The notes under the pieces were generated by a model, which saw nothing but the letters and a program-made list of their open reading frames with translations, was not told the DNA's origin and searched no databases. A stretch of 63,995 nt of DNA, the filler included, from Octopus bimaculoides (Eukaryota): assembly GCF_001194135.2 (NCBI RefSeq). It is 9 parts of 9 records of this genome, joined end to end, with 100 filler letters (N's around TTAATTAATTAA, not from the genome) between each part and the next. Parts side by side here need not be neighbours in the genome. Positions count along the whole stretch, not along the records: positions 1 to 15,166 come from NC_068994.1; positions 15,267 to 20,690 come from NC_068999.1; positions 20,791 to 25,809 come from NC_068983.1; positions 25,910 to 27,521 come from NW_026296993.1; positions 27,622 to 31,588 come from NC_069010.1; positions 31,689 to 35,191 come from NC_068987.1; positions 35,292 to 56,656 come from NC_069000.1; 2 more parts are not named here. One strand, 5' to 3'. Made by a program: the position numbers and the translations under genes. Shown here in pieces: positions 1,860 through 47,228 of the stretch. The stretch's first letter is position 1. Each line of letters starts with the position of its first letter.

Positions 1860-4400
1860 CAGTTTTTGAAGTGTAAAGGTGATATTTTAGAAAAAAATTA
1901 TTTTGTTCAAAAATGTTATGAAATCTTTTGTGAGGATGGTACTAACCTTTTTGGGAAGAAGTCTTTTTCTAGTGTGTGAGTGCTTTCATTAAACGTTTTC
2001 AAACACATGTTCTCTTAAAAAGGAAGTTGTTATTTTTGTGGTAGTGGTAGTATTATTTCCGGTTTATTTTCGGACTCTTGGTATTGGTCATAAATATTCT
2101 TTCACCATTGTTTATTATATAGAGTGTTGACTATTTTCGGTTTAATTTTGGATTTAGAATTCTTATAAAGTATTATTTTTGTTTGCCTTTTGTAATTGTA
2201 CATTTTCATCATTTATTTTGTAAAATGGGAATATTTTAAATTTTCCATTTGCACAGATATCTAGATGTTCACTGCATGGGACATTCCTAATAGATGAATC
2301 CCTAATTTGTTGTTTATACACATTCACACAGCTGTTCAGTTTCCTTCTTGTCTCCCCAATGTAGTTTTCTTTACATTGTGAGCATGTTTTTTGTTTTGCA
2401 ATGAATTCTAATTCCTTCCCATTCTTGAGTTTTTTTGATTGCCCCTTATTCAATTAATTTGCATGTCCCACTACAAGGGTCACCACAGTTGATTACTTGT
2501 ATCGTTTATTTTTCAAATGTGAATCTAGCTTTGTTAGGAGTCTCTTGAGATTGGATAGTTGTCTTCAACTGTTGATAATTTGTGATTTTTTAATTATTCA
2601 TTGGAGATTCGGTAATTGATGTAGAATTGGGAGGTATCGTTTGGCTGAGTGCAAGATGTTGTAGTTTCTATGATTGTGGGTGACTACAAACAGAATATTT
2701 ATATTTGTATTTTTTTTTCAGACCTAGCCGGAGTGTTTCTCCGTAAGGTAGAGATCGGGATTTCCTTTGCTTTTGTTACGGCATATTGAATTAACTTGTT
2801 GGGATATTTTTGTTTCTGAAGGAATATATTAAGTTCTGCCAGTCGTTTCTCTCATCTAACGGTATCTGTGACTGTTGAGCATATTCACCTTGTCATATTA
2901 AACGGTATGTTCCTTTTTGTATGGGAAGGGTGGCAAGATCTAAAATCTAAACATTGGTGTGTGTCTGTGTTCTTGTAATACAGGTCAATTGTAACTTTCT
3001 CATTTTCTTTAATTATCAGGATGTCCAAAAAGAGTACCTTTACATTTATTTCCGTAGTGAATTGGATTGAGACATAAATGTTATTTATTAATTTAAGAAA
3101 TTTTGTAAGGTTCTCCTCATTTAGGTTCCAAAATATAAAGCAGTCATCTAAGAATCTTTTCCAGTTTCTTATGAGGTAAGTTTGGAGGTGGTCGTCAAAA
3201 GTAGTTTTGGATAAGGTATAAATTTTTTCTTCTATGTATCCCATTACTAGTGTGAAAAATGTTGCTGTGACTTTCATATCCATTGCAGTGCCTTGTATCT
3301 GTAGATAATATTGATTATCAAAGAAGTAGTTGTTTTCCAGTACTATCTGTAAACCTTCAAGTATATATTCTTTTGAGAATCTCTCCTGAATTCTTTGTAG
3401 TTGTTTGTTTATCCAGAATTCTACTGCTTCTAGTCCATATATATATGGGGAATATTTGTGTAGAGACTAGTTACATCAAAGCTAGTGAGTACTATCTCTT
3501 TATCTACTTGTTCTGGGATATAGCTTAAGAAGTTCATGTCATCTCTAATGAAATTGGGAACTAATCTGCATAAAGTTTTTTAAATTATGTTCAGCAAGTT
3601 GCTTAATCTTTGGGTGCTGGATGCTGGTCCTGCAACAATCAGATGCAATTTGAGATCAGTTGGTTTGGGAATCTTTGGTGATCTGAATCTTTATATATGG
3701 AGTATGGAAGTCTTTTAAGTTGTTGTTGATCTGTTTGGATTTATGGATTTTAGTACATCCATAAAAATTACTTGTTTCCATTTTAAAATTGGTGAGTTAA
3801 TCCAACTCCTTTTTTATTAAGTCATCTTCAAATTTGTTGGTAAATTTTCCAGTTTTACTCATAGTTCGTTTATCAGCATTGCTATCTAGTTTTTTTGTAG
3901 AATTGCTGGTCATTGAGTTGTTCTAAGACCATTTCCCTGTAATGGGTCTTGTCCATTATTACAATAACTCCTCCTTTGTCAGCTTCTTTAATAACTATAG
4001 ATGAGTCTTCTTGTAGACATTGTAATATGTTTTGTTCCTCATCTGTAATATTTTGTTTTACAAGGTTTGCTAGAATGTTTGAGCTAGCAGATCTTTGCAG
4101 GTGTATTATATATTCCTCCAGATATTTGTTTCTGTTTATTGGAGGTTTAAAACCTGTTTTGTTCTGCACAAGTGATGGATCATAGTTGTGATTGTTTTGA
4201 AAGAATTCACATAGGCGAAGTTCCCTGCAAAATTCCTTGGTATCTTTTATAAGGTCTTGTACTGTTATTATCAGTCTGAATATGCTTGAGGCCCGTTCAA
4301 ATAGGTGAACAAGCCACTCACTGCATTTTGTCATGGAAAATATATTCCATTTGTTGACAAATGGTGTGTATACACATATATCAGCTTGCAGTGCCACCTA
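1860..4400 (-). mobile_element. Penelope-like retroelement (RT plus C-terminal GIY-YIG endonuclease), decayed
   Basis: ORF pieces in order: SIVIKEADKGGVIVIMDK (3882-4397); WKRFLDDCFIFW, FLDILI and DTHQCLDFRSCHPSHTKRNIPF (2885-3283); CSQCKENYIGETRRKL…CSEHLDIC (2163-2453). The left boundary is approximate. Confidence 0.9.
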
Positions 4401-4581
4401 TTCAGACTGTGAGATGCATGCATTTTGGAGTAGTTATCTCCTCTTTGGTCATGGACACCAGGCTGCAGTGCTGCAAGCTGATTGAAGAGACTGATTCTCT
4501 AATGCTTCTCCAGCTACCATATGGTGACTGGCAGCACTGTAATAAAAAATAAAAAATGCATCTGAAACAGCTGTAATGAAC
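4400..4581 (+). ncRNA. Decayed hammerhead ribozyme-like motif with ~150-nt branched stem II
   Basis: ctg-tga core remnant; AGATGCAT 4412-4419 pairs with ATGCATCT 4556-4563; inner 11-bp helix 4464-4474/4531-4541; then GAAAC-AGCT-GTA; located at the 5' end of the PLE. Confidence 0.45.
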
Positions 4582-5369
4582 ATTTAACTCGTTTGTGTTC
4601 TTATTTAATGTAAACACCATTCCTGGAACCTTCCCTACATTGGATTGTGAAACTGCATGCTGGTGTGCATGGACATATAATTTCATGTACATGTATATAC
4701 ATACATATATGTATATTTCAGTGTATATGTACATGTATGTGTAAGTGTATGAATATGTCTGTGTATGCACAGGTATATATACAGATGTGTTTGTATATGG
4801 TATATACACTGATGTGCAGATTTTGACCCTTGTTTGATGTTGAAGTAGCGGAAGGGTAAGAAGAGATTAGAGGGGCAGAATAGAGGGAGGGAAGATGAAG
4901 CTAGAAGGAGGTGGGGAAGAAATTCGAGGGATGAGGGTAGGGTGTGGTATAGAAGGACGTGCTAGGTAGAGAGGAATGTGTGAAGAGAATCAATTCTTCA
5001 GTATTCTTTCTCTGCCACCGACCCACCTTCATTCTTTAAATTTTTCCCTTGTTGCACTGTTGGTATCTATAACTAGATCCCTTCCCTTCATTTTGATACC
5101 TGCCCCTCCCTTTTCTTATACCCACTTCCCTTTTTTTACCATCCCCTCTGGCCCCTCTGTCCCAACCCCATTCCCTATTTCATTCAGCAATACTAAACAT
5201 CTGCAGGCATTCAACAATCCAAGAATGAGGCATCAAATTAAACTCAATCCAGGCCATATACATGTTGGTATGATGGGTTTTTTTTGCAATGCCTCAAAAT
5301 TGTCTTAGTAACCTGGTGATCATTGGTACCCTAGATTTCTTTCTATATCTTTTTTTGTTTCTATGGTAA

Positions 5370-6380
5370 TATTTCTTCATATAAAAGAAAAGTATATGCC
5401 TTCTCCACAATCATTCCAGTATATACCTTCCATATTATGTTCAGGCATGCTACTACGATAATAATTTCCCCACAACATTCTCCTTCTATCTTTCATTACA
5501 AGTGTTGTCCTTCTCATTAACATCCAATAGGGAAGTGCATCCTTCTGGACACATTCGTTCAATTCAGTTGCAAGTCATTCATGAACTGCATTGCATATCT
5601 TCAACCAAAACTGATGGATTCCATCTGGGCTGGGAACTTTCCAGTTTGGTTCCTTGGCCACTTGATCCTTCACATCCTTCAATTCACAGTAAGGTTTCTT
5701 TGTCTATTTCCTCCTCACAATTCTGTCTTGATGATTTCTATCCACTTAGCATCTTTTCTGGTGTTTCCCCATTCCAGAGCTCTTTGGCCTGGTGAGCATT
5801 AGGAACAGCATCCTTCCCACTGTCTCATTCAAAAATGTAGAAGAATTGTTTTTTTAGTTATTTGGAATAATGTATTCTCCTCAAACTTTTTATTTCTGCT
5901 CACACATCTTCTTATCTTCTGGCTTTACATCAAAATCTTCTGTTTTAATTGTTCCATCACTATATAGAATCCATTGTTCCATAGTTTGTTTCTTGTCTCA
6001 TGTCTCCTGATCAACCTTTTCCTCATTTCCCCTTTTCCTCTATAAGCCATTGCTCAATTTTACTTAACTCTTGTCTTGACCACATAATGTCATTTTCTAT
6101 GCTTCATTTACATCATGGTCCTCTTTTGCCTTACGCTGTTTCAATCAATTGTAATTTCTCCTCGGTAGCTTGGATAAGATTCCTTGTTTGCATTACGTCC
6201 TGTCTGAATATGTGATATAACTGTATTCATTTTTTTATAATTTCATATATCATAGTCCTATCAACCCTTTTCATATTCATTGGGATTTTTCTTCATGAGC
6301 ATTCATCAAATCAATTAGCCATCTTTGTAGTTCAAGCAATTCCTCATCTAATTGGCTCCTCCACTGCAGTTCATTATTAT
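5370..6380 (-). mobile_element. R4/Dong-clade non-LTR retrotransposon fragment (pre-RT and RT N-terminus), decayed
   Basis: Minus-strand translation across frameshifts gives NWKVPSPDGIHQFWLK, LNECVQKDALPYWM..RTTLVMKD, CLNIIWKVYTG and MEQLKQKI, typical of R4/Dong ORFs. Confidence 0.75.
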
Positions 6381-46432: not shown

Positions 46433-46645
46433 CTTTTACTATTTTACTTGTGTCAGTCATTTGACTGCGGTCATGCTAGAGCACCGGCTTAAAGGGTTTT
46501 AGTCGAAGACTTTAACCCCAGGACTTATTCTTTGTAAGCCTGGTACTCGTTCTAACGATTTCTTTTGCCGAACCGCTATGTTAAGGAAGCATAAACACAC
46601 CATCATCGGTTGTCAAGAGATGGTGGTGGCGAGCAAACACAGACA
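46433..46645 (-). mobile_element. SINE family A, 3' half running into (TA)n and a gap
   Basis: ttttacttgtgtcagtcatttgactgcgg…cggttgtcaagagatggtgg. Confidence 0.8.
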
Positions 46646-47149
46646 CAAAGACACACACACATAAATATATATATATATATATATATATATATATATANNN
46701 NNNNNNNNNNNNNNNNNNNNNNNNNNNNNNNNNNNNNNNNNNNNNNNNNNNNNNNNNNNNNNNNNNNNNNNNNNNNNNNNNNNNNNNNNNNNNNNNNNNN
46801 NNNNNNNNNNNNNNNNNNNNNNNNNNNNNNNNNNNNNNNNNNNNNNNNNNNNNNNNNNNNNNNNNNNNNNNNNNNNNNNNNNNNNNNNNNNNNNNNNNNN
46901 NNNNNNNNNNNNNNNNNNNNNNNNNNNNNNNNNNNNNNNNNNNNNNNNNNNNNNNNNNATATATATATATATATATATATAAATATATATAATTATTTAA
47001 TAATATATAAAGGGCATTAACTGTGCAGTAATGCCTCACGCTATCGAGGGACTAAATAAGTAAAAAAACTACTAAAAATAAGTAACATATTTACCGAAAG
47101 CGAGGGAATGCAGCTTTTCAAAATTTATCTCTTAAAAACATTTAACTCA

Positions 47150-47228
47150 ACGGTAGACCACTGGTTTCTCAATCAAATACAGAAAAAACTGTGAAGTAAC
47201 CTGTATTCCTTTGTTCATCAGTACACGT
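47150..47228 (-). ncRNA. Type I hammerhead with intact core, GUC cleavage triplet and 46-nt stem II
   Basis: acgugua CUGAUGA a caa agg aauacag…cuguauu uga uug a GAAA CC agu GG UC uaccgu. Confidence 0.7.

Follow-up and report, generated by a model that had tools for sequence, protein, structure and literature searches.

Hammerhead ribozymes (HHRs) are an established component of Penelope-like elements (PLEs), including those of octopus (Hydra-1_oBim; PMC8557442, File S2). PLE hammerheads with a palindromic stem III cleave weakly and as dimers (PMC4209133; review PMC6765202), and both solo and opposite-strand copies have been credited to truncated PLEs (Cervera and de la Pena 2014, PMC4209133), inverted pairs of HHRs being a known PLE arrangement (PMC8557442; PMC4209133). 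In Anolis Poseidon the open reading frame (ORF) begins at stem II of the hammerhead, and one PLE hammerhead has been described as protein-assisted and as not needed for insertion in vitro (PMC11167929). The Hydra clade of PLEs is marked by RWK and DKT motifs, and the core descriptor of Craig et al. uses a 7-17-nt spacer, with 'half core' spacings of 35-50 nt reported in eight Naiads (PMC8557442). Here we analyse a stretch of Octopus bimaculoides DNA (assembly GCF_001194135.2; nine parts joined end to end, 63,995 nt in all, hereafter the window), in which an initial annotation had listed eight type I HHRs at 4400, 14816, 14918, 26151, 26635, 26826, 45787 and 47150 and treated them as one dense family with enlarged stem II. 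We consider it very probable that these motifs are decaying HHRs from the pseudo-long terminal repeat (pLTR) ends of several unrelated PLE families, some of them with a real stem II domain of 46-59 nt, and that a proposed 150-nt stem II is a likely wrong-strand chimera.

Hammerhead motifs and long-stem families

The HHR motifs of the window are real and stand above chance level. The pattern GAAACAGCTGTA occurs four times in the window, whereas block-shuffled windows contain it 0.013 times each on average; with a strict three-helix descriptor two matches were obtained, and 300 shuffles gave none. An exact-core descriptor found three matches (14816, 45787 and 47150; 0.01 per shuffle), and a relaxed descriptor that tolerates one mismatch also found three (14816, 26635 and 22955; 0.02 per shuffle), each with 200 shuffles and with thresholds that were chosen once the motifs had been seen. 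Searches of viral and metagenome contigs with the same pattern gave nothing beyond chance matches: none of the 71 distinct viral matches (96 loci) had both stems, and neither did any of the 15 metagenome loci. The window itself is AT-rich and microsatellite-rich DNA with 7,434 N in 28 gaps, and the named relatives of its reverse transcriptase (RT) are molluscan. Two further candidates, GAAACAGCTGTT at 11360-11371 and a match at 51446, had no convincing partner or context as hammerheads.

The core CUGANGA ... GAAA ... UH is intact in three of nine copies (14816, 45787 and 47150) and changed in the other six. At 14816, 26635, 47150 and 22955 the core is surrounded by three helices with the open end at stem I; this arrangement fails for the plus strand of 4400, for 14918 and for 26151. 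The list of eight HHRs stands in part: three have an intact core, 26635 and 26826 are genuine but decayed, and the remaining three are a 3' half (14918), a doubtful motif (26151) and a plus-strand motif at 4400 that is not borne out in the form proposed. Missing from the initial annotation were the ninth copy at 22955 and the PLE ORFs beside 4400 and 14816. The 21-nt stem II reported for 14816 was confirmed, and four of the five copies said to have 46-57-nt stem II domains retain them (54 nt at 26635 and 26826, 55 nt at 45787, 46 nt at 47150), the exception being 26151 with its 57-nt spacer. The idea of a single dense family did not hold, as self-BLAST of the flanks gave no cross-matches between loci except within 26635/26826/45787 and within 14816/14918, and the weak pairwise flank scores between loci probably rest on common core words. 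By contrast, the view that PLE-type type I HHRs of several lineages are present is borne out, as is the expectation that length-capped searches miss a long stem II: the published spacer is 7-17 nt, and in an Rfam search (E<=1) the matches listed, 150 out of 159, were all microsatellite-driven microRNA and small nucleolar RNA matches and included no hammerhead.

The copies at 26635, 26826 and 45787 form one high-copy family. The first two are the arms of a single insertion, a head-to-head inverted repeat (26562-26760 / 26783-26981) with arms 85% alike, to which the 45787 copy is 67-79% related. Decay is evident in a U4A change at 26635 (minus strand; core CAGAAGA) and, at 26826 (plus strand), in a loop AACT and a GUG triplet beside an otherwise intact core, and stem I of the 45787 copy has just 2 contiguous bp. 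Helix II of the family consists of 12 bp with a loop of 30-31 nt and is 89% paired, with two double changes in the 12 pairs (n=3); across the whole structure 87% of cells pair, compared with 28-39% after sliding the register. We compared 45430-46300 with contigs (484, 301 and 6 from organisms A, B and C, respectively) and found that summed depth, which is not a copy number, peaks at ~19,000 over 45760-45819, where the contig of the locus itself contributes 43, while the repeat ends at (TA)n 45546-45584 and a lower-copy part extends upstream, with gradually falling depth, to ~46150. The majority letter at 45816 (80% and 74%) repairs the sole mismatch of helix II, and loop positions vary among the letter rows listed (40 of 217).

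The copies at 47150 and 22955 are further long-stem-II examples unrelated to this family. At 47150 stem III is ACCA-G-UGGU, not of the AGCT/ACGT type, and stem II folds with z=-2.11 (for a folded segment offset by 4 nt), and the stem II domain of 22955 folds at -18 kcal/mol. GIY-YIG-like peptide scraps at ~23700-24300, upstream of 22955, were seen by eye and found no support in any search. The motif at 26151 (plus strand) combines a C3U core, GCA in place of NUH and a stem II z of -0.03.

RNA reads from ~6% of each run (91 on 45430-46300 and 40 on 4290-4670) showed no end pile-up; all derive from diverged relatives, none of them 95% alike, and they fall on both strands. No joints were seen among the few reads on 45430-46300, and no RNA data set was listed as containing this interval. 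The mapped RNA reads show neither expression of the window copies nor cleavage. Other accounts of the 45787 family were considered and set aside: an apparent 3' splice site at 45874, immediately ahead of stem I, is contradicted by a different letter in 94% of the depth there; six short motifs gave no relevant match to the 'half core' of octopus Naiads in the supplement of Craig et al. (in which line breaks could mask matches); and the 3' ends of Naiad_Ovul and Naiad_Obim seemed unrelated to the family by eye.

The two strands of locus 4400

The branched stem II of ~150 nt proposed for the plus strand at 4400 is most likely the antisense of a compact minus-strand HHR joined to a separate half-motif. 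The plus-strand 'core' reads CUG-UGA, with one base missing, and corresponds to the compact HHR's stem I in antisense; moreover, the motif would be antisense to the PLE, because the ORF (4350-2134) runs on the minus strand. When read with the letters of related copies, positions 4454-4407 of the minus strand provide a CUGAAGA-type core with G12 and C17, a stem I of 6 bp in which 4454-4449 pair with 4412-4407, a 4-bp stem II (GGAG/CUCC) with a 7-nt loop and a 4-bp near-palindromic stem III, and cleavage is predicted after 4413. The fold of the window copy retains stem II and the closing stem, and the closing helix folds with z=-2.18 and has opposite-strand joints at 4374/4386-4463.

When 4290-4670 was compared with public contigs and reads from four runs (728, 563, 0 and 40 records), pieces were seen to continue through 4400. 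The plus-strand majority letters, given as depth share in organisms A and B, are T>A at 4419 (78%, 67%), T>C at 4426 (64%, 54%), 4446 (69%, 48%) and 4452 (81%, 97%), and G>A at 4453 (65%, 82%), and loose ends starting CAG behind 4445 occur in 60 and 54 contigs of the two organisms and in 9 RNA reads; each of these brings the minus strand nearer to a canonical HHR. The majority letter at 4402 (92%, 76% of depth), on the other hand, abolishes stem I of the proposed plus-strand motif. The other component of that motif, GAAAC-AGCT-GUA at 4564, has a depth peak of its own (4550-4575) with loose ends before 4547/4548, and the long pieces among those listed (16 of 1359) end at 4530-4541, short of it. 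An alignment of the 4548-4670 piece with the 3' untranslated region (UTR) of the neighbouring ORF gave no match, and this piece is probably a separate 5'-truncated inverted PLE end that was joined head-to-head.

Several points weigh against our reading of this locus and would fit a real plus-strand 150-nt HHR that overlaps the sense HHR in antisense in this subfamily. The 151-nt domain folds better than its shuffles (z=-2.63; 4/300), the 6-bp helix that closes it (AGAUGC/GCAUCU) is unaffected by the listed majority letters, and depth is of similar order on either side of 4545; in addition, the majority letters blend related subfamilies and were listed for 40 of 55 rows, among which a change at 4447 is absent. 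Nevertheless, with a core one base short and complementary to stem I of the sense HHR, a plus-strand stem I peculiar to this copy, and a gap between the ends of the listed pieces and the loose ends at 4547/4548, we regard such a ribozyme as improbable. A strong helix of ~10 bp (4464-4473 with 4531-4541, within 4461-4541) in the 5' region of the same element accounts for much of the fold noted on the plus strand, and suggests a structured 5' UTR that may lie upstream of the compact HHR. Separately, five RNA reads of run X20 at 4547-4580, from a related family, contain a small hairpin but lack a core in the 30 letters that precede the A-rich 3' strand of stem II, a hint of one more family with a long, branched stem II. 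The 4400 locus is a caution that palindromic helices let one HHR mimic another on the opposite strand.

Element debris and its rival explanations

The RT/GIY-YIG ORF at 4400 and a Hydra-clade ORF at 14816 lie directly downstream of sense-strand HHRs. In the first case tblastn with P0001, whose domains are RVT_1 and GIY-YIG, matched residues 58-766 at 4256-2134 (E 1.8e-159) through frameshifts and stops; the 5' limit at ~4350 was judged by eye, and the 3' UTR extends to (TA)n at 1802-1834. A CX2-5CxxC linker between RT and endonuclease (EN) is present in 41 of 42 long relatives, with a CGDPxxGTC stretch in the window translation, and by this linker the element would be classed as a putative Neptune/Nematis-type PLE.

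The HHR at 14816 (minus strand), which has a 5-bp stem I and a stem II fold of z=-3.63, sits ~245 nt upstream of an ORF with the motifs RRMQW (RWK-like) and DKT. Long relatives of this ORF have RW[KR] in 8/8, DKT in 7/8 and a CxCX5C linker in 7/8; homology to P0122 ends in the window at residue 463, and the C-terminal EN part was not recovered. An HMMER search gave 754 relatives at E<=0.001, unlike a word-based protein search for the Hydra N-terminus, which gave no match. An assignment of the ORF to the Naiads was overruled in favour of Hydra by the motifs of Craig et al. The 14918 motif (plus strand) is the dead inverted sister of the 14816 HHR, with the 3' half only and a short and broken stem II, in an inverted repeat of 78% (15011-15162 / 14647-14811). 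PLE ORF 5' ends thus adjoin three of the eight listed copies (4400, 14816 and 14918), and the initial statement that most copies have no coding PLE beside them is right for the other five.

A PLE origin is favoured by the two inverted pairs in the window, which point outward, head-to-head, as is known for PLEs. For the long-stem copies there are points against this reading. No coding PLE sequence was found beside any of them within the window, so that what links them to PLEs is the type of motif, the pairing in inverted orientation, the gradient in depth and the microsatellites at their ends, and the last of these is weakened by the density of microsatellites in the window (95 rows). Covariation of helix II is not significant (55/500 shuffles; n=3, two from one insertion), and fold z-scores of the 54-55-nt stem II domains are weak (-1.1, -1.4). 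These scores could also suit a CUGANGA and a GAAA-UH half that are unrelated and pair by chance, which is plausible for 26151; as a general account of the long spacers we hold it to be very improbable, given that matches exceed the shuffle controls, that a register-specific 12-bp helix recurs in three copies and that the majority letter at 45816 mends that helix.

A retrozyme-like origin had also been proposed, and we judge it unlikely that the long-stem-II copies are dispersed monomers of non-LTR retrozymes or of a non-autonomous, ORF-less PLE derivative. Such an origin would agree with the lack of ORF remnants near 26635, 26826, 45787 and 47150, with the ~330 nt of the high-copy part, which is a retrozyme-like size (PMC7229834), and with a preprint that traces retrozymes back to PLE pLTRs and tallies solo monomers (10.64898/2026.07.22.740005). 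However, no head-to-tail HHR repeats occur in the window (7,434 N included), the pairs are head-to-head and solo HHRs have already been credited to truncated PLEs (PMC4209133), which leaves the retrozyme reading unsupported; the gradual fall in depth to ~46150 is what 5' truncation of a longer element predicts, and the RNA reads, few as they are, contained no joints. Under a PLE origin, the lack of ORF remnants beside the long-stem copies is as expected for 5'-truncated copies.

As a possible history suggested by PLE biology, the RNA of an active element would have cut itself after GUA/GUC and so defined its end; it probably did so in dimeric form, with two palindromic stem III halves together, and the ORF protein perhaps assisted. 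Insertion of 3' ends by endonuclease-primed reverse transcription, with 5' truncation and inversion, may then have given rise to the solo copies and the head-to-head ones. Outside the core, the long stem II would stack on stem III and offer a stable helix and a variable loop in place of the loop 1-loop 2 contact, as a peripheral extension tolerated by the core; most window copies are presumably dead.

Table 1. Features of the window, with strand and supporting evidence
Position	Strand	Feature	Evidence
2134..4350	-	Decayed near-full-length PLE ORF, RT, Zn-linker and GIY-YIG, putatively Neptune/Nematis-type	tblastn, domains
4380..4483 (4380-4391 with 4472-4483)	-	12-bp closing helix prolonging stem I of the compact HHR	sequence, fold
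4407..4454	-	Compact type I HHR, core broken in window copy	majority letters and loose ends of related copies, window fold
4548..4670	+	Orphan 3' HHR half (stem II 3' strand, GAAAC-AGCT-GUA) and tail ending in microsatellite	depth peak, loose ends
13264..14576	-	Decayed Hydra-clade PLE ORF, N-terminus to RT thumb	tblastn with P0122, E 4e-58
14816..14865	-	Intact type I HHR, 21-nt stem II	descriptors, fold
14918..15162 (3' half at 14938-14949)	+	Inverted sister arm with dead HHR copy	inverted repeat
22951..23037	-	Ninth HHR remnant, 4-bp stem I, core CCGAAGA (U4C), 59-nt stem II domain	relaxed descriptor, fold
26151..26233	+	Doubtful, heavily decayed HHR-like motif, 57-nt spacer	both descriptors failed
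26562..26760	-	Left arm of head-to-head pair; HHR 26635-26717, 54-nt stem II, U4A	inverted repeat 85%
26783..27090	+	Right arm; HHR 26826-26908, 54-nt stem II, GUG cleavage triplet	inverted repeat
45600..45940	-	High-copy repeat end, intact-core HHR 45791-45874, 55-nt stem II	contig comparison
47153..47224	-	Intact-core HHR, 46-nt stem II, 3-bp stem I, GUC site	descriptors, fold

The window also contains a decayed Tc1/mariner transposase at 598-1509 (minus strand; DDE_3 E 1.2e-07 and helix-turn-helix domains) and dispersed families of repeats resembling short interspersed elements, 72-92% alike and in both orientations (8376-8601, 30595-30820 and 77-264; 20500-20690, 35705-35895 and 47922-48074; and others). 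Peptide scraps at 7282-7874 and 51798-52088 are reminiscent of the ORF ends of long interspersed elements, and Pfam gave nothing meaningful for the one that was tried. A direct duplication of ~170 nt (79%; 47461-47640 / 47773-47924) lies near the 47150 HHR, with no HHR inside it; a 200-nt inverted repeat (8605-8804 / 8994-9193; 83% complementary, 189 nt apart) has no hammerhead match; and a degenerate 17-nt minisatellite array occupies 37759-38096.

Comparison with described hammerheads

Most of this material is ordinary PLE debris, and what remains is useful in structural and methodological terms. In at least three unrelated families of the window the core halves lie 46-59 nt apart, far above the spacer of the published descriptor, and PLEs that carry an HHR may for this reason be undercounted. 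In the excerpts searched, which included PMC3088659, PMC10085705, PMC13282606 and PMC6962438, none of the animal PLE HHRs had a stem II of 46-59 nt; such cases could be contained in Lunse et al. 2017 or in the supplement of Cervera 2014, which lay outside this search. We propose, as a tentative view to which we give slightly less than an even chance, that functional HHRs with stem II domains of this length arose in several independent PLE families of animals, probably cephalopods, that Rfam and short-spacer descriptors are blind to them and that the number of PLE ribozymes is therefore underestimated. The long helix and loop could form a module that binds protein or stabilises dimers and stands in for the loop 1-loop 2 contact, and the long-stem families offer a natural test of whether a long stem II enables an HHR with a palindromic stem III to cleave without loop-loop contact.

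Among described systems, the pLTR HHRs of metazoan PLEs share with the window copies a type I topology, a palindromic stem III and a longer-than-usual helix II, as well as a predominance of solo copies, opposite-strand pairs 100-700 bp apart and several families per genome (PMC4209133). Their helix II has 7-8 bp, however, compared with 12-14 bp and a loop of ~30 nt (46-59 nt in total) in some families here. Similar to the HHR of Anolis Poseidon at the start of its ORF (PMC11167929), the compact HHR at 4400 lies just upstream of an ORF. The animal non-LTR retrozymes likewise carry a type I HHR in a non-coding repeat of ~300 nt, but they form head-to-tail tandem arrays there, of which the window has none (PMC7229834; 10.64898/2026.07.22.740005). 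The animal Hydra HHRs of PMC8557442 (File S2) all have short stem II domains, of ~12-26 nt by our count, unlike the long-stem families, and the Hydra-clade elements there encode an RWK/DKT ORF, as does the element beside 14816. Because the published octopus Hydra HHR, Hydra-1_oBim, has a stem II of 22 nt against 21 nt at 14816, the latter is an ordinary copy; the 47150 HHR has an ACCA-N-UGGU stem III in common with Hydra-clade HHRs (File S2). A long stem II is likewise found in the spike-moss PLE-X1_sMoe HHR, with 9 bp and a 34-nt loop (~52 nt), and File S2 describes this HHR and that of PLE-X1_sTam with the words 'deviates from canonical structure' (PMC8557442). Those two elements are endonuclease-less plant PLEs targeted to ribosomal DNA, whereas the long stem II domains described here occur in animal DNA and together with a palindromic stem III.

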